DNA of 40,391 nt from a virus (lineage: Duplodnaviria; Caudoviricetes). The notes beneath the pieces are model-generated. The model saw only the letters and a list, made by a program, of their open reading frames with translations, was not told where the DNA came from and made no database searches. The DNA lies in IMG/VR virus record IMGVR_UViG_3300030100_001240, positions 1 through 40,391 of that record; one strand, given 5' to 3'. Every line of letters begins with the position of its first letter. Position 1 is the first letter of the stretch. Both the position numbers and the translations under genes were made by a program. This document shows positions 1 through 40,391 of this stretch, piece by piece.

Positions 1-96
1 ATCTTCAATTGCTGCGCTCATAAATCACTCCGTAGTTAGTTGCCGTATAACAACAACAGGCAGCGCGACACTGCGTGCGCCTGCTGTAAGGGTTAT
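1..96 (+). repeat. Exact copy of 39970-40065 (end of cassette C plus its attC)
   Basis: Identical through ...TAAGGGTTAT, then diverges (AACTCC vs GTGCGC). Confidence 0.95.
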
Positions 97-411: not shown

Positions 412-735
412 GTGATTTCTACCGGTTTCGCAGTGGTGGCATTGCTTTTCGCCGCCCCTGAATTTGTATCGTTGGTGTATGCCAAGCCAGCGGCACAGTT
501 TGGGATTAATGTGCACGTAGGCGAAGTTGGTCACGGCGGTATGCCACTTCTTGCTGCGGTTAAAGGTGATGGATTTGGAGTACTGCATCCAACCGCGAGG
601 GCGCACTGTAATTTCATAGCGCAACGGGTTTAGCCACCACTTCAACGGCACGCATCGTCTTGGTATGTCCGCATCGCCAATCATGTAGATCAGGATGGCG
701 CGGGTATTCAAAACCATCTGTTCTGGGCAATTCAT
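406..735 (-). CDS. Cassette F hypothetical protein with C-terminal CxxC
   Basis: ORF 406..801; likely ATG at 735 after GAGAGG; stop TAA overlaps the GTTA core at 405. Confidence 0.65.
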   Translation of the reverse strand: MNCPEQMVLNTRAILIYMIGDADIPRRCVPLKWWLNPLRYEITVRPRGWMQYSKSITFNRSKKWHTAVTNFAYVHINPKLCRWLGIHQRYKFRGGEKQCHHCETGRNHA

Positions 736-756
736 ATTTTCAACCTCTCTAAAAAC

Positions 757-827
757 GCCTAGCAACGGTAGGCTGTCGGACTTCGTTACGCTGCGCTTCA
801 CTGCGCAGTTGCTATTGGGGGTTAGTT
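757..827 (+). other. Degenerate attC-like site of cassette F
   Basis: R'' is GCCTAGC (AAC changed to AGC) and L' pairs poorly; 5' ~45 nt nearly identical to the attC at 39585. Confidence 0.7.
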
Positions 828-1353: not shown

Positions 1354-1373
1354 CGTTCACCTCCGGGTTATGG
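1306..1373 (+). other. attC-like site of cassette H
   Basis: CGTTAAC-AACTC-GGT[C]AAAT...GTTCACC-TCCGG-GTTATGG. Confidence 0.8.
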
Positions 1374-1649
1374 GGCTTGCAGTATCCGGCCAAGCCGCAA
1401 TATGTGTACCGCTTCGCCTTCAGGCGCGCCCCATTCAGTTATTCCAGGTCCACCCAGGTGCTCGCCCAGTTCGATCAGCATAGTTGGCGAGGTCGGGCTG
1501 TAGCCGTTGCGAAATTGGATCGCGTCAAACTTTTTATTGTTCAGCCGGCGATTCCAATACGGCTTCATCTCGCGGTATTCCTCTTTCTTCTCGCCGCTGG
1601 CTATCATGTCAAACCAGCGCTTTTTCAATGTAAGGTGTAGCACTTTCAT
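1368..1649 (-). CDS. ASCH/PUA-like domain protein
   Basis: LHLTLKKRWFDMIASGEKKEEYRE...FRNGY motif. Confidence 0.8.
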   Translation of the reverse strand: MKVLHLTLKKRWFDMIASGEKKEEYREMKPYWNRRLNNKKFDAIQFRNGYSPTSPTMLIELGEHLGGPGITEWGAPEGEAVHILRLGRILQAP

Positions 1650-4941: not shown

Positions 4942-5208
4942 TCAAATGCTGTTGGTAAAAATCACGTCCAGCGCGGACGCAACCACAAAGCCCCAGATGA
5001 ACGGAAAGAGCCATGGCAGTTCCGGTTGCTCGTCAGTGTGCTGGTGGTTCTGGTCGGCGCGGCTCGGTGATATCGGCGCTCGGCACGATGGCGAAACGTG
5101 AATGACGATTCGTTCTTTGGCAGGCCGTGGTTTAAGCGGTAGCGGCGTGACATTGTGGGCGCACGGGCTTTTTACTACGCTGAGCTTGGGGCGGCGCTTG
5201 TTGTTCAT
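4942..5208 (-). CDS. Hypothetical protein with C-terminal TM helix
   Basis: WLFPFIWGFVVASALDVIF; coupled to the upstream gene. Confidence 0.5.
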   Translation of the reverse strand: MNNKRRPKLSVVKSPCAHNVTPLPLKPRPAKERIVIHVSPSCRAPISPSRADQNHQHTDEQPELPWLFPFIWGFVVASALDVIFTNSI

Positions 5209-5420
5209 GACAGGCTCCTCTGGCGCTGCTGGGTGCGGTTCAGCGTGGTGTCGCTAAGGGGCACAAAGCCCCTGCTGAATTCGCTGTCGATCTGTTTGAT
5301 GTGCCCGCCGGTGCGCAGGTACGCTTCAACATCTTTTTCAATCAAAGCTCGGCGCCTGGCTGAGCTGGTCGTTGTCGGCAGTTGGTCTGCATGGTTTGGG
5401 CGTAGCTTGGTCCAGTTCAT
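5205..5420 (-). CDS. SutA-like RNA polymerase-binding domain protein
   Basis: RRALIEKDVEAYLRTGGHIKQI resembles the SutA core motif. Confidence 0.55.
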   Translation of the reverse strand: MNWTKLRPNHADQLPTTTSSARRRALIEKDVEAYLRTGGHIKQIDSEFSRGFVPLSDTTLNRTQQRQRSLS

Positions 5421-5439
5421 GGCGTGCCTCTCTTTGTGG

Positions 5440-5604
5440 TTACCAGTGGTTCAGGCCGGTGCACCAGCCGGTGATGAAACTTTGCATTTGCCTGCTGCTT
5501 TCCTGCAGTTGTGCTGCGCAGGCGGCTTTGGTTCTATGCTCCACGCTGACAACCGCATGCCCGTTTGAGGTTTGCAGCAATACCAGCAGGAGCCAGGTGG
5601 TCAT
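5440..5604 (-). CDS. Small exported protein (54 aa, MTTWLLLVLLQ...two Cys)
   Basis: Translated by hand; GGAG RBS; hydrophobic N-terminus. Confidence 0.5.
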   Translation of the reverse strand: MTTWLLLVLLQTSNGHAVVSVEHRTKAACAAQLQESSRQMQSFITGWCTGLNHW

Positions 5605-6102: not shown

Positions 6103-6285
6103 TCAGGTGAGTGTGTGTTCCATGTTGGCCAGTGCGCGCAGCACGGCTTCCCGGTGCCGTATCCACACCGCCCCGCTGTGGTTGGCATGCAACCAGAGCA
6201 TGACTTTGAGCGCGGCCAGGCACTGATACCGGTGGCCGGGTATGCGCTCGGCTCTGTAAATTTGCGAGGGTGTGGTGTGCATCAT
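6103..6285 (-). CDS. Hypothetical protein (MMHTTPSQIYRAER...)
   Basis: Coupled to the Lar gene; 5' end is duplicated at 6899-6938. Confidence 0.5.
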   Translation of the reverse strand: MMHTTPSQIYRAERIPGHRYQCLAALKVMLWLHANHSGAVWIRHREAVLRALANMEHTLT

Positions 6286-6876: not shown

Positions 6877-6935
6877 TTCCGTGCGCTGCCGGGTTGTTCG
6901 CTCGGCTCTGTAAATTTGCGAGGGTGTGGTGTGCA

Positions 6936-7238
6936 TCAGGCTGTCTCCAGCTTGAAATCTGGTGGGGCTGTGGCTATCGGTCCGTTTGCTTTCAGTTGCG
7001 CCAGCTGAATTTCGATGGATTGGAGTTTGAAGTCAGCGTCCGGAGCGTCGAGGTAAACGGTCCAGTCCAGCAGGCGGGGTCTTTTTGCGCCGAGGCGGTA
7101 GTCTGAGCCAGCAGGGTGTGCGTAAACGGTGAGCCCATCGATGTGCCCGAGATAGGTGACCATTACATCGGCGATCCGGGCCTGACTGATTTCCATGGCA
7201 GCGGCTGTGATCTTCAGTGCTCGCTCGGTGGGTGTCAT
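6936..7238 (-). CDS. Hypothetical early protein
   Basis: GGAGG RBS; ATGA-coupled. Confidence 0.6.
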   Translation of the reverse strand: MTPTERALKITAAAMEISQARIADVMVTYLGHIDGLTVYAHPAGSDYRLGAKRPRLLDWTVYLDAPDADFKLQSIEIQLAQLKANGPIATAPPDFKLETA

Positions 7239-9810: not shown

Positions 9811-10647
9811 ATGCAGGATGTGATGCAGCAGCTCGCACAGGGTGGCCTTGTGATTGACGGCGCGCTCGAATACGGCCGTCTGGTGCGATGCAAGGTCGAG
9901 GGTGATACAGGCCGTAAGCAAAGCGGCTGGTATGTGTTGCATACCCTTGTGCTCGATAACGGTCAGGATGTTGTGGTTGGCCGCTACGGCAACTGGAAGC
10001 GTTACGGTGGTGAAGGGCAGAAGGTTGAGCTGGATTTGCCTGAGCTTACTGCCGAGCAGAAAAAGGCCTTTGCAGCCGAGCAGAAGCGGCTGAGCGATGC
10101 CGCGCGACGTGAGCGCCTGGCTCGGGCCGAAGAGGCTGCGGAGCGTGCGAAGAAACTATTTCCCAAACTGCCTGACTCGGGAAAATCTCCTTATCTTGAT
10201 AGAAAAAAGGTGCGCGCTTTTGGTGTGCGCTTTTCCCGTGGTTCGATTGTTGTTCCTCTCAGAAATTCGGAATTAAAGCTGGTTGGTCTGCAGTTTATTG
10301 CGCCCGACGGCAGTAAAAAATTTTTGACGGGTACCGCCAAGATGGGTGCTTTTCACATGGTGGGGGTTCCGTCGGAAAAATCACCTTTGTGTATTGCTGA
10401 AGGCTATGCCACGGCGGCGACTGTTCATATGGCATCGGGTTGGGCATGCCTGGTTGCGTTTGATGCGGGCAATCTTAAACCCGTCGCGCTGGCGGCTCGG
10501 AAAATGTATCCAGATATCGAGCTCGTAATCTGCGGCGACGACGATCACGCGACGGATGGTAACCCGGGTGTTACGAAGGCGACAGAGGCTGCCGCTGCTG
10601 TTGGCGGTTGCGTTGTGATTCCCCAGTTCGAGAAGGGGGCGTTGTGA
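9811..10647 (+). CDS. DNA primase, Toprim domain
   Basis: LQFIAPDGSKKFL; IAEGYATAAT; AFDAGNL; ICGDDD. Confidence 0.9.
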   Translation: MQDVMQQLAQGGLVIDGALEYGRLVRCKVEGDTGRKQSGWYVLHTLVLDNGQDVVVGRYGNWKRYGGEGQKVELDLPELTAEQKKAFAAEQKRLSDAARRERLARAEEAAERAKKLFPKLPDSGKSPYLDRKKVRAFGVRFSRGSIVVPLRNSELKLVGLQFIAPDGSKKFLTGTAKMGAFHMVGVPSEKSPLCIAEGYATAATVHMASGWACLVAFDAGNLKPVALAARKMYPDIELVICGDDDHATDGNPGVTKATEAAAAVGGCVVIPQFEKGAL

Positions 10648-11051
10648 CGGCTCGCAAGGCAAAGTGGATGGGCATGAATTGGTGCAGGCCGTCAACGCGG
10701 CTTGCGGTTTATCTGCGCGATGAGGTGGTCTGTTTGTGGTGCCAGAACGATTTTGATTCTGACGATAGAAAGCCAAGCCTCGACCATCTTGTGCCGGTTT
10801 CTCGCGGTGGTAGCAATACCCCGTGCAATTTGTTTACAGCGTGCCTGGGCTGCAATAGGCGGCGGGGTAATTTGAGCATACCGGCCTTTGCTGCATCGTT
10901 TCCGGATCCGCAAGGCGTGGAGAGGCGCATACGCAATGCGGTCAGGCGGCGGCTGCCTCGTGAGCGCGCTATCGAAATTCTTAATGATCACCTAACGATT
11001 ACAGGCGCGCTGTTGGCGTTGATTCGGTCTGCTCGGGAGTGCGAGTTGTAA
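10644..11051 (+). CDS. HNH endonuclease
   Basis: RD..CLWC...SLDHLVPVSRGGSN...NLFTACLGCNRRRG. Confidence 0.9.
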   Translation: MTARKAKWMGMNWCRPSTRLAVYLRDEVVCLWCQNDFDSDDRKPSLDHLVPVSRGGSNTPCNLFTACLGCNRRRGNLSIPAFAASFPDPQGVERRIRNAVRRRLPRERAIEILNDHLTITGALLALIRSARECEL

Positions 11052-12460
11052 TGAGCGATGCTTTGACTGATTTCAACGATCTGCATTGCGCTCACGGGCT
11101 CGATACTGTTCGAGACCAGGTGGAGCGCGCATATCATAATTTTGTTGAGACGCGCAGCGTTGAATCAGCGCCGCCAGAGCCTGAGCAGGAAGAGCTGCCT
11201 TCACCGCCGGACCTTGATTGGCTGCGGCAAATGCAGAAAACGCGGCAGGGCGCGTTCATGGCCAATATTTATAACGCGCATATGGTGTTGTCTCACGATT
11301 CAGACTGGCAGGGTGTGTTGGGGTACTGTGAGTTCAGTTATCGCATTATCAAGCGTCGGGTGCCGCCGTGGTTTGGTGGCGTGGTGGGTGAGTGGACAGA
11401 CGCCGATACGGCTCGTCTGCGAATCTGGATTTCAAAAAAATACGGTTTCTCGCCGAAAAGCGCTGACGCGGAAGACGCGATACTGGTAGCTGCTCAAGAC
11501 AAAAGTTTTCACCCTGTTACTGAATATCTGGATGGCCTCGTGTGGGACAGGCAGCCTCGTGTTCGCTCCTGGCTAAAAACCTACATGGGTGCGGAGTCGT
11601 CGGCGGAAGATGCGGGTGAGCGTGCGCGGTACGAGCGCTATGTGTCTCTGGTGGGCACGATGTGGCTGATTGCTGCAATTGCTCGCGTTGTTCGCCCGCC
11701 GGTGAAGTCGGACTGCGTTTTGATTTTGGAAGGGCTGCAGGGGCTGGGCAAGTCAACCGCGCTCGAGATTCTCGGCGGCAGTTGGTTCTCGGATACGCAC
11801 TTTGCTCTGGGTGAAAAAGACGGCTACCAGCAAATGCAGGGTGTGTGGATCTGTGAGCTGGCAGAACTGGATTCTTTCAACAAGGCTGAGTCGACTCGCG
11901 CGAAGCAATTTTTCGCGAGTTCTGAGGATCGATACCGCCCTGCGTATGGTCGTCGCGCTCATGCCTTTGCGCGGCAGTGTGTGTTCGCCGGTACCACCAA
12001 TCAGGACAGCTACCTGAAAGACCCAACGGGCAACCGGCGCTATTGGCCGGTGTTTTGTTATCGGCTCGACGCGGTAGCGTTGGCTCGCGATCGGGATCAA
12101 TTGTGGGCTGAGGCCTACCAGTTGTATTGCCTGGGTGAAAAGTGGTGGGTGCAGGAGCATGACAAGCATCTGTTTGAAGAGCAGCAGGAGGCGCGGTTCG
12201 CATCCGATGTTTGGGAAGATTTGATTGTGGAGTACCTACGCGATCCGATGAATAACGCAGAGGTTTATTTCACTACCAATGATCTGATGGCTGGGGCGTT
12301 GCGGCTTGAGCCTGCACAAATGCGCCAGCCTGAGCAAACGCGTGTAGGGCAAATCATGACGCGCCTGGGGTGGCGCAAGTCTCGGCGCGCAGTGCTTGAG
12401 AGTAGCGGTAAGCAGGTGAGGAAGTGGGTTTATGAGCGGCCGCCTGACTGGAAGGGCTGA
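11051..12460 (+). CDS. VapE/VirE family P-loop helicase
   Basis: LILEGLQGLGKST; ELAEL; RPAYGR; GTTN; GNRRYWP. Confidence 0.9.
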   Translation: MSDALTDFNDLHCAHGLDTVRDQVERAYHNFVETRSVESAPPEPEQEELPSPPDLDWLRQMQKTRQGAFMANIYNAHMVLSHDSDWQGVLGYCEFSYRIIKRRVPPWFGGVVGEWTDADTARLRIWISKKYGFSPKSADAEDAILVAAQDKSFHPVTEYLDGLVWDRQPRVRSWLKTYMGAESSAEDAGERARYERYVSLVGTMWLIAAIARVVRPPVKSDCVLILEGLQGLGKSTALEILGGSWFSDTHFALGEKDGYQQMQGVWICELAELDSFNKAESTRAKQFFASSEDRYRPAYGRRAHAFARQCVFAGTTNQDSYLKDPTGNRRYWPVFCYRLDAVALARDRDQLWAEAYQLYCLGEKWWVQEHDKHLFEEQQEARFASDVWEDLIVEYLRDPMNNAEVYFTTNDLMAGALRLEPAQMRQPEQTRVGQIMTRLGWRKSRRAVLESSGKQVRKWVYERPPDWKG

Positions 12461-12462
12461 AA

Positions 12463-12729
12463 TGTCCAACCTGTCCAACCTGCCGCGTGGAGGTTGGACG
12501 CGCTGAAAGCCGCGTCATTACTGGGCGTGTCCAACCTGTCCAACCTGTCCAACCTTTTGCGCGCACGTGTATGTGTTTTTACATGCGCGCTGTAAGGCCG
12601 AAACGAAAACGATTAATCGTCTTGTGTGTACGAATAAGGTTGGACAGGTTGGACAGGTTGGACAAAGCCAGTAGCTATAAGGGTTTCAGAGTGTCCAACC
12701 TCGCCAAAGGTTGGACAGAGGTTGGACAT
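12463..12729. repeat. Iteron-like TGTCCAACC / GGTTGGACA repeat cluster (putative replication origin)
   Basis: About a dozen direct and inverted copies, including tandem triplets at ~12528 and ~12638, right after the helicase. Confidence 0.75.
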
Positions 12730-16453: not shown

Positions 16454-17751
16454 TTATCGAGCAGATGTTTGAAAGACGGTCGCAGTCGGTAAACCCGGCG
16501 CACCCGCGCGATCCTTTATTGGCGTCGCTGTTTGGCTTGTCTGCAAATACGTCTGCGGGTGTATCCATAACACCTGATCGGGCGATGCGAATTGTGGCGG
16601 TCTATGCGGCTGTCCGGATTATTGCAGAGACCGTGGCAAGTCTGCCGCTAAATGTGTATCAGGGCCGGGATGATGGCGGCAAGGAAGTTACGCGCGCTCA
16701 CCCGCTCTATCCGTTGCTGCACGACCAGCCGAACGCCTGGCAAACTTCATTTGAATGGCGGGAAATGATGGTTGGGCACGCGGCGCTTCGCGGCAATGCC
16801 TATAGTGAAATCATCCACAGTAATGGTGGAAGTGTTGAGGCTTTGATTCCGCTGCATCCCGACCGGGTGATTCCGTTCATGCCTCGTGCCGGGACAATGG
16901 CTTATGAATACGCGGCGGCTGATGGCAGGTCGCGAATTATCCTGCAAGACGAAATGCACCACTTGCGTGGCCTCTCTGCGGATGGAGTGAAGGGGTACGA
17001 CCCCGTAGATTTGGCGCGTGACTCTCTCGGTCTAACGGCGGCCAGCGAGGAGTTCGGCGCGCGGTTTTTTGGAAACGGTACGGTCGCTGGTGGCTACCTC
17101 AAGCACCCGCAAACATTGAGCGAAGACGCTCAGAAGCGACTGATTAAATCGTGGGAAGAACGGCACCGAGGTCCGCAGCGTTCCCATCGCCCTGCAGTCT
17201 TGGAAGAGGGCATGGAATGGCAGGCAATCGGGATCGAGCCGGAAAAGGCTCAGTTCCTGGAAACGCGGAAGTTTCAGATTGCCGATATTGCCCGCATGTT
17301 CCGCGTGCCGCCGCACATGCTGGCGGATCTGGATCGTGCAACCAACAACAACATCGAGCACCAGTCGCTTGAATTCTTGATGCACACGATTCGGCCATGG
17401 CTGGTGCGCCACGAGCAGGCAATACGACGGGATCTATTCTCGATCGAAGACCGCCGCAAGCATTTTGCGAAATACCTTGTTAACGCCCTGCTGCGTGGCG
17501 ACGTTAAATCACGGGGAACGTTCTACAAGGAAATGTTCGGCATCGGCGCAATGTCGCCAAATGATGTGCGTGAGCTTGAGGACTTGAACCCGATCGACGG
17601 CGGCGATCAATACTTCATCCAGTCAAACAACGTAGCCCCACTCACCGACCCGGTTCCCAAAGACGATGAAGACGACCTCATTAGAGCGCTCACAGACCTT
17701 GTCAAAAAGAACGGGTCTGACAGCCCTGACGCTGCTACTGACACAAGATGA
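16450..17751 (+). CDS. HK97-family portal protein
   Basis: AVYAAVRIIAETVASLPL; QFLETRKF; IARMFRVPPHML. Confidence 0.95.
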   Translation: MIIEQMFERRSQSVNPAHPRDPLLASLFGLSANTSAGVSITPDRAMRIVAVYAAVRIIAETVASLPLNVYQGRDDGGKEVTRAHPLYPLLHDQPNAWQTSFEWREMMVGHAALRGNAYSEIIHSNGGSVEALIPLHPDRVIPFMPRAGTMAYEYAAADGRSRIILQDEMHHLRGLSADGVKGYDPVDLARDSLGLTAASEEFGARFFGNGTVAGGYLKHPQTLSEDAQKRLIKSWEERHRGPQRSHRPAVLEEGMEWQAIGIEPEKAQFLETRKFQIADIARMFRVPPHMLADLDRATNNNIEHQSLEFLMHTIRPWLVRHEQAIRRDLFSIEDRRKHFAKYLVNALLRGDVKSRGTFYKEMFGIGAMSPNDVRELEDLNPIDGGDQYFIQSNNVAPLTDPVPKDDEDDLIRALTDLVKKNGSDSPDAATDTR

Positions 17752-18394
17752 GCGCTACCGTGGCCCACGGGGCGAACGAGGGGACAAGGGCGAGCGGGGC
17801 GAGCAGGGCCAGGTAGGCGCCAGGGGCGCGCAGGGTCAAGAGGGCGAGCGAGGCCCCAAGGGTTACCGGGGGTTGCGGGGAGATACAGGCGAGAAAGGCA
17901 ATCACGGATCCCGCGGCGCCAGGGGCGAAGCCGGCCCTCGTGGAGTTAAGGGTGAGCCCGGACTTGGCATTGACAAGCAGCGCACTCGGATTAACAACAA
18001 GGGAAATCTCATCCTGGCGTTTACAGACGGCAGCGAAAAAGATCTTGGGCGCGTTCGAGGCGACGACGGCAACAGCCCGTCGCCAGTAATCTCCCGAATG
18101 GGTGGAGGCGGTGGAACCAACGATTTCAATTTTAAAACCGTTGTCGGGAACTACACCGTCGAAACGCGGGTCACCGTGTTGCGCGTCGACACGTCGGGCG
18201 GCGATGTCACCGTCACGGTGCCAGCGGGGCGGCGCAAGTGGCTGCATATAAAACGCGTCGGATCCGGATCGGTCACAGTGTCGACCGATACTGGTGCTGC
18301 TATTGAGGGCGAGACCAGCCGTATTCTCAATCGCGATTTGTGGGCGCTGAGAATCGCCTGGGATGCAGAACATGAAGCGTACTGGGAATTTTGA
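17666..18394 (+). CDS. Collagen triple-helix repeat protein
   Basis: About 22 Gly-X-Y repeats, then GNLILAFTDGSEKDLGRV and a beta-rich C-terminal domain. Confidence 0.8.
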   Translation: MKTTSLERSQTLSKRTGLTALTLLLTQDERYRGPRGERGDKGERGEQGQVGARGAQGQEGERGPKGYRGLRGDTGEKGNHGSRGARGEAGPRGVKGEPGLGIDKQRTRINNKGNLILAFTDGSEKDLGRVRGDDGNSPSPVISRMGGGGGTNDFNFKTVVGNYTVETRVTVLRVDTSGGDVTVTVPAGRRKWLHIKRVGSGSVTVSTDTGAAIEGETSRILNRDLWALRIAWDAEHEAYWEF

Positions 18395-18999
18395 TGGGCA
18401 AAGAAGTTCTACCTGATCCCCTTAACGTCAACCAGCAAATCGGAGACGTTGATGCACCGGGCGGCGCGGGCAATGTCTCTGGGTCAACGCCGCGGATTAC
18501 GCTGGCGACAGACGATCTTGCTATTGCCGCTGCGATCGAGGCGCTGCGAGATAAGTATTCTCAGCACTTCAACGCAGGTCTGATTCGCCACGTTGGCGCC
18601 TCCTTAACGTCGGGGCTCGCCAGTACGCAAAGTTTTCGGCTGGCCAATCCGGCAGCCAGCGGCAAGAACCTATTAGTGCTGCAAACGTTGTTGACGCCAA
18701 CGGTTGATGCAACGTTCACATTGAGCAAAAACGGCACGCTCGCGGGGCCGACAAACCACACACCATGGAACCCTATAATCGATGGTGGCGACACCACGGT
18801 AGCTGTTGCGCAGTCGCAGGCAGTCGCATTCACAGGAGCGACATCGTTGCCAGGCGGCCTCCGCACGGCGGCTAATATTACGCTGTCTCTTCCGCTCTTG
18901 GTCCTGTTGACGCCAGGGAAGAGCATCGGCGCGAGCGTAACCTACGGCACCGGCGCCACCTCGCACGTCAACATCATATACGTAGAGCTGCCGGAATGA
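18394..18999 (+). CDS. Hypothetical beta-rich virion protein
   Basis: Coupled ORF, Ala/Thr/Gly-rich. Confidence 0.55.
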   Translation: MGKEVLPDPLNVNQQIGDVDAPGGAGNVSGSTPRITLATDDLAIAAAIEALRDKYSQHFNAGLIRHVGASLTSGLASTQSFRLANPAASGKNLLVLQTLLTPTVDATFTLSKNGTLAGPTNHTPWNPIIDGGDTTVAVAQSQAVAFTGATSLPGGLRTAANITLSLPLLVLLTPGKSIGASVTYGTGATSHVNIIYVELPE

Positions 19000-37239: not shown

Positions 37240-37510
37240 GTGCCTGCAAAATGCCTCCAGTATTTTTATCTCAGCTTTAGTTTATTGATTTAAAAGCGCT
37301 TTATTTTTTGTTTGTACAATCCATCATGGGCGCAACACAGAATCGCCTGTCCAGTCCCTTTCCCACATAACCCGCGCCGTCCGTGGGTTTCCCGCCATTT
37401 TCAGCGTCTTGCAGCATCATTTTGCCTGTTTATTAAATAACCTATTTCGCCCCATAATCTACCATTTCTACCCGTTTTTGCTATTGTAGTGCCTCCAGAA
37501 TGCCCCCAAA
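37240..37510. other. attP region; core around 37320-37336 matches the dusA 5' end
   Basis: Minus strand GTTGCGCCCATGATGGA encodes VAPMMD; arm-type TGCCTCCAG-like repeats at 37240-37260 and 37489-37509. Confidence 0.8.
37301..37420 (-). pseudogene. dusA: Replacement 5' fragment of dusA (39 aa, ...RRFCVAPMMDCT)
   Basis: Translated by hand: MMLQDAENGGKPTDGAGYVGKGLDRRFCVAPMMDCTNKK*. Confidence 0.75.
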
Positions 37511-37528
37511 TTTTTGGAGACACCGAGT

Positions 37529-38587
37529 GTGGCGACGATAACAGCAAGAAAGCGCAAATCCGGCACCCAATATACGGCCCGAATCAGGGTGAAGCGGGAC
37601 GGCCAAATTGTACACCAGGAGTCGGAGACTTTCGCGCGAAAGGCTCTGGCGAAGGCCTGGGCAGACAAGCGGGAAGGGGAGCTGAGAGTGCCTGGTGCGC
37701 TTGAGCGATTAACCCGCGTAGGTGTATCGGTGGGGCAGGTGCTCCAGTGGTATCTCGATGATTATGATGGGGTCAACAAGTTTGGCCGATCAAAGAACAC
37801 CTCGTTGAATCAGCTGATTAATGATCCTGAATTGGCTGGGCTGGATGCGATGTCGCTGACTTCGGGGCAGATGGTTGCGCATGCCAGGCGGCGCCTAGGT
37901 AATGGGGCGGGCCCTGCGACGGTGAATAATGATTTCATCTGGTTGCGCACGGCCATGCGCGCAGTGCGTATTGGTCGCGATCTTCCTCTGGATTTGCAAG
38001 CCATTGATGACGCCGCTTTTATATGTCGCAAAGAGCGATTGATTGCGAAGTCTTCTCAGCGCGATCGTCGCCCGACGCTCTCGGAGGTCGATAAACATCT
38101 CAAGCACTTTTCTGAGCGCGACGGGCGGGCGCAGACTCCGATGGTTGATATTATACAGTTCGCGCTGTTCAGTAGCCGGCGGCAGGAGGAAATTTGCCGT
38201 ATCCGCTGGGCGGATGTGGATCGTGATAAACAGCGGGTTTTAGTGAGGGATATGAAGCACCCGAAACAGTTGGTTGATACCTGGGTGTTTGTACCCGACC
38301 TTGCCTGGCAGGTTTTGCTGAGGCAGCCAGAGAGTGAAGATGGGCGAGTGTTTCCGTACAACAGCAAAACGGTATCTTCTAATTTTACCCGTGCATGCAA
38401 ACTACTGGGGATAAAGGATCTTCGGTTTCACGATTTGCGGCATGAGTGCATAAGCTGGCTGTTTGAGCAAGGCTGGGATATTCCTCGCGTGGCCTCGGTG
38501 ACTGGGCACAAGGCGTGGACTTCGCTGCAGCGGTATACGCACCTGGAGCAGGTGGGGGATAAATACGCGGATTTCACGCTGCGCTAG
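37529..38587 (+). CDS. int: Tyrosine integrase (dusA-associated type)
   Basis: SRRQEEI (R), DMKHP (K), FHDLRHE, TGHK, LQRYTH; GGAGA RBS before GTG. Confidence 0.9.
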   Translation: MATITARKRKSGTQYTARIRVKRDGQIVHQESETFARKALAKAWADKREGELRVPGALERLTRVGVSVGQVLQWYLDDYDGVNKFGRSKNTSLNQLINDPELAGLDAMSLTSGQMVAHARRRLGNGAGPATVNNDFIWLRTAMRAVRIGRDLPLDLQAIDDAAFICRKERLIAKSSQRDRRPTLSEVDKHLKHFSERDGRAQTPMVDIIQFALFSSRRQEEICRIRWADVDRDKQRVLVRDMKHPKQLVDTWVFVPDLAWQVLLRQPESEDGRVFPYNSKTVSSNFTRACKLLGIKDLRFHDLRHECISWLFEQGWDIPRVASVTGHKAWTSLQRYTHLEQVGDKYADFTLR

Positions 38588-38837
38588 ATTTCAGGCGTTT
38601 GTGATCGTGGCGGGCCTGTTCTTTGAGCTGGTCCAGCCATTCTGCCAAATCGTGGGCGTTGATAAGCCATTCGGATTTCTGCGAGCCGCCGCGAAAGCAG
38701 GGCACCGGCAAGTCCTGGTGTCGGGCCTTTGATGCGGCCTTTGCATAGCTGAGCCCAAAGTATTTATCGCAGCATGCCATCAGCGGTATGTCTGCGGTTT
38801 CGTACTCCAGCATCAGTGCCATAAATGTTGACTTCAT
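38574..38837 (-). CDS. PrtN-like protein, probable excisionase
   Basis: STFMALMLEYETADIPL...LPVPCFRGGSQKS..DLAEWLD; convergent with int. Confidence 0.8.
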   Translation of the reverse strand: MKSTFMALMLEYETADIPLMACCDKYFGLSYAKAASKARHQDLPVPCFRGGSQKSEWLINAHDLAEWLDQLKEQARHDHKRLKSSAA

Positions 38838-38860
38838 CGGTCACTCCTGCGTGATAGTGG

Positions 38861-38913
38861 GACAAAGTGGGGTGATATAACGCGACACTTTGTCGTCTAT
38901 TTGGGTGTTATAT
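38861..38913 (+). other. Left boundary of the cassette array (candidate primary insertion site)
   Basis: G|TTATAT core at 38907 with no attC L-box arms; 9-bp inverted repeat GACAAAGTG/CACTTTGTC. Confidence 0.55.
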
Positions 38914-38914
38914 T

Positions 38915-39139
38915 TCAATTCTTCATCGCGTAGTGTTCTGCCCAAATCTCGTCGCACTTGCGTACAGCGTCATAGAAGTGTGTTGGGCCGGTAAACTCAA
39001 CGAACACTTCGTTTTCCTTGGCCAGTGTCGATTTTGTGGCAGTGGTTAGAATCATCATTTCCCTGTCATCATTCATGTATGATTCCTCGCCGCGAATAGT
39101 TGGTCCCTTTCGCCAGCCGTGCATAAATTCAATGCCCAT
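38915..39139 (-). CDS. Cassette A hypothetical protein
   Basis: ORF fills cassette 38908-39216. Confidence 0.7.
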   Translation of the reverse strand: MGIEFMHGWRKGPTIRGEESYMNDDREMMILTTATKSTLAKENEVFVEFTGPTHFYDAVRKCDEIWAEHYAMKN

Positions 39140-39158
39140 CCAGTCTCTCGCTATTTAA

Positions 39159-39222
39159 ATATAACAACTGCCGTCACAGCGACGGCTCATTGCATTCGCC
39201 GCGCGTGCGGCTTGGGTTAGGC
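39159..39222 (+). other. attC-like site of cassette A
   Basis: ATATAAC-AACTG-CCG[T]CACA...CGTGCGG-CTTGG-GTTAGGC. Confidence 0.85.
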
Positions 39223-39564
39223 GTACTCAAACACCTGAGTACTTGGGTTGTCCTCGCCATCGTCATCAGGCAGCAGCGCCACCACTTTCCCAATTTCATT
39301 CAATAGCTGGGCAACGCCGCTTGGATTCCATTCTGTTGCTCGTGCTACGGCACCTCTCCATATGTCGGCGCCACAACCTTGTGACATCATTGATCTGTAA
39401 TATGAGGTGGTTTCGGCTTCCTCTTTTGCCGCCTCTAGATATTCCCCGGTATTGCAACACGGGCACGGCCATGAGTGGTCGTCTGGATCATATCCGTCAC
39501 TATCGGCGTCCCAAACATACCCATCGCCTCTGCATTCAAATGTTCCGTTCTGGTATTCGCACAT
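39217..39564 (-). CDS. Cassette B Cys-rich hypothetical protein
   Basis: C..DGYVWDADSD...PCPCCNT; GAGGA RBS; stop overlaps the core. Confidence 0.75.
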   Translation of the reverse strand: MCEYQNGTFECRGDGYVWDADSDGYDPDDHSWPCPCCNTGEYLEAAKEEAETTSYYRSMMSQGCGADIWRGAVARATEWNPSGVAQLLNEIGKVVALLPDDDGEDNPSTQVFEYA

Positions 39565-39584
39565 TCTTCAATTCCTCAAATCAC

Positions 39585-39654
39585 GCCTAACAACTGTAGG
39601 CTGTCGGACTTCGTTACGCTGCGCTTCACTCAGCCGCAGCTACTTGGGTTATAC
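39585..39654 (+). other. attC-like site of cassette B
   Basis: GCCTAAC-AACTG-TAG[G]CTGT...GCAGCTA-CTTGG-GTTATAC. Confidence 0.85.
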
Positions 39655-39990
39655 GGCCTTCCTATCCAGGCGCTCTATCTCGGCGATTAGTAGCGCAGCG
39701 GCCCGCACCAGGTCGCGCCTTGGGTCTTTTGGTTTCCACCATCTTTCATCCCACGGCCAATCCTGAGGGACTTCTTCCTCCTGGTATCTAGCCAGTGATC
39801 CGCCTAATTTTTTTCGCAATTCACTGTCAGCGTCCAGCAACCATGATCGGCATACATAATGAGAGACGTAGTTTCCGGCCGCCTGTGCCATTTCTCGGTT
39901 TTTATGCTCGTCGTCGTGTTCTGCTGTCCATCCCTCTGATGCTATTTGCCGCTGCCGTTCCTCTAATACATCTTCAATTGCTGCGCTCAT
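39649..39990 (-). CDS. Cassette C conserved phage early-region protein
   Basis: ERQRQIASEGWTAEHDD...WPW..WWKP..RRDLVRAAALLIAEIERLDR, a widespread phage domain. Confidence 0.8.
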   Translation of the reverse strand: MSAAIEDVLEERQRQIASEGWTAEHDDEHKNREMAQAAGNYVSHYVCRSWLLDADSELRKKLGGSLARYQEEEVPQDWPWDERWWKPKDPRRDLVRAAALLIAEIERLDRKAV

Positions 39991-40013
39991 AAATCACTCC
40001 GTAGTTAGTTGCC

Positions 40014-40067
40014 GTATAACAACAACAGGCAGCGCGACACTGCGTGCGCCTGCTGTAAGGGTTATGT
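40014..40067 (+). other. attC-like site of cassette C (joined to cassette D)
   Basis: Same site as 45-98 but R' is GTTATGT. Confidence 0.85.
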
Positions 40068-40232
40068 GCGCTCCCGCATAGCTTCGTCAACTTCAAGCTC
40101 ATCAAGCGCAGCCTGCAATTTGTTCTTCAGCTCTCGCGCAGCGTTTTTTGTAAAATGTTGTTTAATGCCGGAGAACTCCACAATAAATGGGAACACTCCA
40201 GCAGGGTCTACCAGCGTAACTTTGATGCTCAT
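40062..40232 (-). CDS. Cassette D small hypothetical protein (56 aa)
   Basis: GGAG RBS before ATG at 40232; stop overlaps the core. Confidence 0.7.
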   Translation of the reverse strand: MSIKVTLVDPAGVFPFIVEFSGIKQHFTKNAARELKNKLQAALDELEVDEAMRERT

Positions 40233-40250
40233 ATCACACTCCGTATCGGC

Positions 40251-40307
40251 ACATAACAAAGCCAGCAAGCGCGACGGCTGCGCCGCGCCTTCTGGCGGGG
40301 GTTAGGC
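40251..40307 (+). other. attC-like site of cassette D
   Basis: ACATAAC-AAAGC-CAG[C]AAGC...CCTTCTG-GCGGG-GTTAGGC. Confidence 0.85.
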
Positions 40308-40391
40308 GTACTCAAACACCTGAGTACTTGGGTTGTCCTCGCCATCGTCATCAGGCAGCAGCGCCACCACTTTCCCAATTTCATTCAATAG
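40299..40391 (+). repeat. Exact copy of 39214-39306 (start of cassette B)
   Basis: Identity begins at GGG|TTAGGC, the attC crossover. Confidence 0.95.

Follow-up and report, generated by a model that had tools for sequence, protein, structure and literature searches.

The window, by which we mean the whole stretch of 40,391 nt that was analysed, derives from a temperate tailed phage (phage 1) with genes for repressor, primase, helicase, terminase, portal, capsid, tail, integrase and excisionase. Contigs of four runs (X1 to X4; one study, three marine samples S1 to S3, possibly the window's own source) were compared with it, runs X5 to X8 with their small shares being left aside, and in the deepest of them, X1, phage 1 is a circle of 39,969 bp with cassette order A-B-C-E. 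Its integrase gene (37514-38587, plus strand, PHROG 1) encodes a tyrosine recombinase of phage type and no integron integrase. It is followed by the excisionase gene (38574-38837, minus strand, PHROG 1300 and Pfam PF11112), a candidate entry site and an array of short gene cassettes, which runs across the ends of the window. The first gene past the array (1368-1649, minus strand, PHROG 625) has as its stop codon the TTA of the last G|TTA.

The attP core lies at 37320-37350. On the minus strand the core matches the dusA 5' end; the translation, RRFCVAPMMD, is what we take to be the start of DusA. Host-side loose ends join there, and host sequence meets the core in three of the four runs. Core and host join appear to fit the dusA-associated integrases, for which the available text of Farrugia et al. 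2015 (PMC4482086) likewise gives an attP core equal to the dusA 5' end, with the host joining there. This likeness, drawn from the attP core rather than from integrase phylogeny, would account for integration of phage 1 and not for movement of cassettes. Because depth at the attP join is 140.7 in X1 and 5.8 in X2, phage 1 existed mainly in free form in X1, whereas most of it was integrated in X2. Searches for the host through the dusA junction gave no match in the genome collection, homologs of the integrase hint only loosely at marine Gammaproteobacteria, and the integrase itself matched no locus among the viral contigs.

The primase-helicase gene (9811-12460) is interrupted by an HNH endonuclease ORF (10608-11051). 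The ORFs on either side of it cover a single profile, PHROG 2249, in succession (parts 36-294 and 297-778), and the HNH ORF is possibly a homing-endonuclease insertion or an intron. Directly past the helicase, at 12459-12663, 9-bp repeats form direct and inverted arrays which could fold into a 135-nt hairpin; this region is a likely replication origin. A tail-fibre-like gene and an ORF without assignment occupy 17666-18999 between portal and head protease, and a 55-nt direct repeat (89%; 6230-6284 and 6884-6938, 654 nt apart) lies in the early-left region.

Cassettes, attC-type sites and the entry site

Eight attC-like sites, seven in the 39,969-bp genome and one closing cassette D, delimit cassettes A to H (240-432 bp), all read here along the plus strand. 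Cassette A (309 bp, 38908-39216), which is common to phage 1 and a second phage, has an ORF at 38915-39139 (start uncertain) and its attC at 39159-39222. It is followed by B (432 bp, 39217-39648; ORF 39217-39564, attC 39585-39654), C (413 bp, 39649-40061; ORF 39649-39990, attC 40014-40067) and D (240 bp, 40062-40301; ORF 40062-40232, attC 40251-40307). At the start of the window stand E (313 bp, 93-405; ORF about 102-344, short two-bulge attC 364-411), F (416 bp, 406-821; ORF 406-735, degenerate attC 757-827 with AGC for AAC), G (274 bp, 822-1095; ORF 822-998, attC 1034-1101) and H (272 bp, 1096-1367; ORF from 1096 with uncertain start, attC 1306-1373), the last with the weakest R'/R'' match. 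All eight ORFs are on the minus strand, opposite to the attC top strand and like the early genes on either side, so each gene has its own attC in front of it. Six of them use the crossover's TTA as their stop codon.

Most of these genes resist assignment. NCBIfam gave 0/8 and Pfam 2/8 matches, the latter below cut-off; PADLOC gave a single weak one (E 0.003), which was not counted, and a clear PHROG match was obtained for C only (PHROG 6628 and others; 84 phage records). The DNA of the array produced eight short matches in annotated phages, all within gene C. Homologs of three genes occur as ordinary phage genes: of B (45%, in L005), of C (in the 84 records, for example L038) and of F (37.5%, in L037). 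A strict attC scan around these homologs in other phages found no flanking attC, so that the relative of B in L005 lacks the site; cassette B itself is missing from another record, L036. A scan for promoters and terminators in 38500-40391 stayed at chance level.

The definition of attC and the numbering of bulges follow the available text of Nivina et al. 2016 (PMC5027507). The R'' and R' boxes (RYYYAAC and GTTRRRY) carry AAC and GTT in 7/8 sites, F having AGC. A strict pattern (AAC, 5 nt, bulged stem, GTT) matched the window eight times, always on the plus strand and within the array; these are seven distinct sites, as that of C occurs twice and the degenerate one of F is missed. One hundred first-order Markov simulations of both strands gave a mean of 0.41 matches and a maximum of 2. 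Each cassette start was also compared with its own R'' side in complement; past GTTA, 39 of 48 positions agree, a score reached by 2 of 40,320 permutations, and unbroken R'/R'' complements of 8-10 nt are kept in six of the eight cassettes. Stems have 9/9 pairs in A, B, C, D, E and G, eight in H and six in F; bulges stand at 16/20/24 in seven sites and at 16/23 in one, with the 6 bp that the definition asks for from the first bulge to the last, and the final T is present in all.

Two traits depart from the published type. Base 16 is G in two sites (D and H), C in four, A in one and T in one, where G is the "usual" base in the attC sites of the available text of PMC5027507; this weakens membership and still allows it. 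Six sites measure 57-71 nt, within the 57-141 bp given there, while C has 54 and E 48; yet it is the site of C that has two alternative junctions. The opposite polarity, with the attC top strand equal to the gene strand, was considered and rejected: mirrored bulges leave 4-7 of 9 pairs against 6-9, which is worse in 8/8 sites and assigns the top strand to the plus strand, and the attC sites that accompany B and C from junction to junction also contradict it. Minimum-energy folds give the full attC hairpin or the L-box stem for five sites (A, C, D, E, G); since other folds arose for B, F and H, we relied on analysis of boxes. Taken by their sequence, attC-type is the right designation for the predicted sites. 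With at least two neighbouring attC and no intI the array is a CALIN, a call made outside IntegronFinder's own model. A complete integron would have its genes on the attC top strand, a promoter at attI and intI adjoining the array; here all eight genes are opposite and no intI adjoins the array of phage 1.

The sites of F (757-827) and B are about 83% alike over 82 nt (window 567-821 and 39567-39648), and those of G and H share an inner motif with both, as one attC family within the array. The family motif had one match in the viral collection, in the same phage.

Between the excisionase gene and cassette A, at 38872-38910 on the plus strand, lies a candidate attI-like entry site with crossover G38907|TT. 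The 40 nt up to the first crossover are identical at 25/40 positions to those of L004, a contig of the second phage (phage 2), and at 24/40 to those of L031, a low-GC phage; L004 and L031 agree at 32/40. A conserved site which is not an attC thus heads the array in three phages, and in phage 2 it precedes A in S1 and S2 and another cassette, Z, in S3. We regard it as a candidate attI for new cassettes. The motif matched the viral collection seven times, once in the same phage (L030), twice in one low-GC phage (L031, L034) and four times in coding DNA; the latter four, without cassettes, and the single match in the genome collection, also in coding DNA, were dropped as chance. Beside chromosomal intI genes of the genome collection the motif had no match.

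The low-GC phage (39% GC; L031 at 4990-5510, and L034) has behind its near-identical entry site one backward cassette with two ORFs. Both ORFs are on the minus strand, a 10-nt R'/R'' complement is present, and the attC-like site pairs at 7/9 and fails the strict pattern. The cassette adjoins neither an integrase nor an excisionase gene; a homolog of the cassette F gene is found outside it.

Contig ends and a second phage

Both ends of the window repeat internal stretches exactly. Positions 1-96, the last 96 nt of the assembly node of C with its attC (45-98), equal 39970-40065; the first copy continues into E and the internal one into D. Positions 40299-40391, the first 93 nt of the node of B, equal 39214-39306; the former is reached from the attC of D and the latter from that of A. 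The first-pass annotation had noted that the attC of C leads into D at G40061 but into E at G92, and that B is preceded by the attC of A at G39216 and by that of D at G40301. These coordinates are exact, and the run contigs confirm the junctions. Its remark that the repeat boundaries lie near the GTT core also stands, as the start repeat stops 4 nt past the G and the end repeat begins 2 nt before it. In all four runs a single 293-nt contig carries D and bridges the C-D and D-B junctions, which therefore represent real DNA rather than errors in bases. Run contigs break where the repeats of the window do, with B starting at 39214 and C ending at 40065 in 4/4 runs. Physical genome ends and a simple circular overlap were rejected, because each end repeats an internal stretch at which the run contigs branch; no one direct repeat joins both contig ends.

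The foreign sequence that enters cassette A led to L004. This contig encodes a different phage integrase (PHROG 1) and a small divergent ORF of DNA-binding, excisionase-like type; beyond these, its sequence from the same G|TT onward is identical to that of the start of A. Phage 2 is represented by 1,492 bp, and no contig spans its array. Two loose-end patterns and cassette D, used to look for phage 2 in the viral collection, had no match there; its integrase had 21 loci at 30-49% identity, around which the strict attC scan revealed no cluster and one isolated match (L024). At positions 1-30 of L004 the left end of phage 2 branches to two predecessors in X1 to X3. The minus strand ends there in CCA, which presumably resembles the 3' end of a tRNA gene.

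Junctions and depths were read from assembled contigs. In X1, X2, X3 and X4 respectively, depth of the phage 1 backbone is 141.9, 14.1, 9.5 and 9.3, and of the phage 2 integrase 23.2, 14, 7.4 and 8.3. Cassette A has 156, 33, 17 and 17, B 186, 33, 15 and 25, and C 190, 36, 17 and 26, that is 0.88-1.48 times the sum of both phages. The 30-nt C-E piece, unlisted and with depth derived from the bin mean, has 156, 17, 9.6 and 11.9, equal to backbone depth. Cassette D has 34.5, 16.7, 8.5 and 11.7; its ratio to phage 2 is 1.15-1.49 and to phage 1 0.24-1.26, noisy figures of which only X1 separates the two phages. As the depth of D tracks phage 2, D is assigned to phage 2 and likely lies outside the main genome of phage 1. 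The comparison of B, C and D with the backbone that had been suggested beforehand thus gives B and C as the sum of two phages and D as phage 2. We conclude that the contig ends likely arose as the assembler passed through cassettes A, B and C, common to two temperate phages. The best reading of the window is then the 39,969-bp circle of phage 1 plus a 422-bp walk into the array of phage 2. Host-side junctions are of similar depth, with values of about 13 and 10 in phage 1 and of 9.8-14.7 and 6-9.1 in phage 2, which is compatible with one double lysogen holding both phages.

More junctions were present than the window contains: A-C in three of four runs, the attC of B joined to a new cassette X in all four, the entry site of phage 2 joined to A in X1 and X2 and to Z in X3, and a Z-type attC joined to A in X3 and X4. 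The junction graph (entry1-A, entry2-A, A-B, A-C, B-C, B-X, C-D, C-E, D-B) has eight decompositions. In four of them phage 1 exits to E, and among these only A-B-C-E fits X1; it pairs with A-C-D-B-X for phage 2. No A-C contig is listed among those of X1. Assemblers of this kind may prune short low-depth edges, and the missing contig may be such an edge. We infer that phage 1 in S1 is mainly entry-A-B-C-E-F-G-H (39,969 bp). For phage 2, entry-A-C-D-B-X...Z and entry-A-B-C-D-B-X...Z have about even odds; both place D in phage 2 and need whole-cassette events. If the second order is correct, phage 1 must contain B in S1 (A-B-C-E) but not in S2 and S3 (A-C-E). Record L036 has the order A-C-E: its identity with the window is 100% over stretches of 12,217, 646 and 423 bp, and it lacks exactly B; L036 could also be a chimeric assembly.

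The first position of phage 2 differs between runs. In X1 and X2 the entry site continues into A. In X3 it runs into other sequence, and the contig ends exactly 30 letters past the G of GTT, which is the overlap to be expected where two paths enter one node. A 56-nt contig of X3 and X4, at depths of 6.1 and 8.9, connects a new attC with A; GTTA closes the initial 30 letters of this contig, which implies two successors. A single contig in X1 and X2 (depth 24.7 and 15.5) leads from the attC of B across uncharacterised sequence to 33 nt that also occur at the end of C, and then into an attC; the loose end of this attC overlaps that of X3 and X4 by 12 nt. The first 10 nt of the new first cassette are the complement of the R'' side of the Z-type attC (10/10). 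These observations suggest one cassette, Z, of which S1 and S2 have a single distal copy, while in S3 a copy also occupies the first position at the phage 2 entry. Its two ends are linked by the 10/10 complement and the 12-nt overlap, and the entry2-Z junction comes from X3 alone, as X4 has a gap at the entry site.

Alternative explanations and origin of the recombinase

Depth favours our two-phage reading over the three genome forms proposed in the first-pass annotation, none of which proved the main answer, since D follows a second temperate phage. The 39,969-bp A-B-C-E genome itself is borne out, with C-E at 156 against 142 for the backbone in X1; the 1,085-bp B-C-D circle that had been proposed beside it is not needed. 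An excised circle of this kind, with phage 2 then of order A-B-X, is a valid decomposition of the junction graph. In X1 all of B, C and D stand somewhat over the two-phage expectation, where a free-circle term improves the fit somewhat, and D exceeds phage 2 by 15-49% in every run. But a circle without origin would have to keep pace with phage 2, at about one copy to each of its genomes, throughout three samples in which phage 1 shifts from equal depth to six times that of phage 2, and A, which cannot be on the circle, is in excess as well (up to 18%, in X2). We consider it quite improbable as the source of D; a minor free circle might coexist and is not required by the data. The tandem A-B-C-D-B-C-E duplication is the contig unrolled literally, and it predicts D of about 142 and B and C of about 284 in X1, against 34.5, 186 and 190 observed. 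As the main form of phage 1 it is barely credible, and at most it would be a minor subpopulation. An unrelated co-assembled phage had been named beforehand as grounds for abandoning the proposal; this applies in part, since a second phage is indeed present, but at this locus the two are related, with cassette A identical in both and their entry sites alike.

Eleven junction types around A to D, including entry2-Z and Z-A, differ by whole cassettes and all switch at GTT, so the array is likely active. This crossover position agrees with that expected if IntI recombined the attC bottom strand at AA|C. The earlier opinion that it is active rather than a relic is in this way upheld, with the absence of B from L036 and the first-position Z in S3 pointing in the same direction. 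Relic arrays, with mosaics made by homologous or microhomology-driven (Red-type) recombination between co-resident prophages, would find support in the 9 nt around the crossover shared by some attC ends (A-C joint), in the degenerate site of F and in the lack of any IntI found. We hold this very improbable, because 11/11 junction types switch at the same GTT, even in entry-attC joins that share only 4-8 nt, and because six of eight stems are perfect and six of eight cassettes keep the long R'/R'' complements. The recombinase might also be of phage origin: an enzyme of IntI or Xer-like type, encoded by the stretch of phage 2 that lacks sequence or by another co-resident element, with the entry site as its cognate. 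The entry site is found only in phage-like sequences (window, L004, L031/L034), its sole match in the genome collection is in coding DNA, and phage 2 is mostly unseen. Against this stands the geometry of the attC sites, which is the classical one read by IntI, and the search for the enzyme: phage 1 gives scores of 30.7 bits, by its integrase, and 24.7 bits against the integron-integrase profile TIGR02249 (cut-off 265), no match to this profile is listed for the phage 2 integrase, and none of four related records searched, three of them fragments, has an IntI above cut-off. A phage-encoded enzyme is therefore unlikely in our opinion. We favour, with a probability of roughly 0.65, that the contig ends are a walk through cassettes of two temperate phages and that these cassettes are moved by an integron-type integrase supplied from outside.

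Under the favoured reading, the minus strand of each attC would fold into a hairpin, and IntI of the host would excise a cassette by attC x attC recombination. The excised cassette might then enter one or the other prophage, with the entry site or a different attC as target; donor and recipient would probably reside in one doubly lysogenic cell. The backward polarity would keep the inserted gene, together with its own ribosome-binding site, in the leftward early transcript of the phage; because the genes face the entry site, a new cassette would land at the promoter-distal end of the early operon.

Relation to known integrons

Phage CALINs are already published. Qi et al. 2023 (PMC9892861) found 17 of them among 10,705 genomes of temperate and virulent phages, and IntI1 recombined five of six tested phage attC sites. 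Those CALINs and phage 1 alike are clusters of attC without integron integrase. As far as the available text of PMC9892861 goes, it reports neither an array inverted throughout nor a conserved phage entry site, of which phage 1 has the former and a candidate for the latter, and neither cassettes common to co-occurring phages nor natural changes of order, both of which the contigs suggest here. With integrons, in the accessible part of PMC5027507, phage 1 shares R and L boxes, spacers of 5-6 nt, bulges and the final T, as well as the G|TT crossover and gain and loss of whole cassettes. Unlike them it has no intI in cis, its genes face the entry site, and its cargo consists of ordinary phage accessory genes, with G at 16 in two of the eight sites. 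The literature searched, subscription journals being largely outside it, contained no uniformly inverted phage cassettes with an entry site and no cassettes common to co-occurring prophages.

We tentatively propose, at a little under even odds, that temperate phages share a mirror image of the integron: a conserved phage-specific entry site within the early operon, backward attC cassettes, trade between unrelated prophages of one lysogen and a borrowed integrase. If this is true, backward cassettes would be the phages' own accessory genes, out of reach of the promoter of a bacterial integron. The trade would have been caught in progress, as two phages have three cassettes in identical form and as a cassette enters the first position from one sample to another. 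Mosaicism of phage early regions is usually ascribed to homologous or illegitimate recombination; cassette movement would provide a site-specific route to it, gene by gene. The plain operon genes without attC that are homologous to three of the cassette genes bear on the origin of integron cassettes. One 39-nt entry site and eight short attC sites make a small testable system. For assembly in general, contig ends inside such arrays can join two phages falsely.

Copy-and-paste insertion at the first position is the usual outcome in class 1 integrons, according to the available text of Souque et al. 2021 (PMC8024014). The order Z-A...Z, probable for phage 2 in S3, is alike in that a distal cassette is duplicated at the first position and the array is kept. 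The settings differ: a plasmid-borne class 1 integron under antibiotic selection there, and here an uncultured marine prophage whose order is deduced from contig branch points. The 33-nt stretch at 39992-40024, which comprises the ribosome-binding and R'' region of C, and the first 10 nt are both common to C and the presumed cassette Z, which suggests that C or Z may have been built on the ends of the other.
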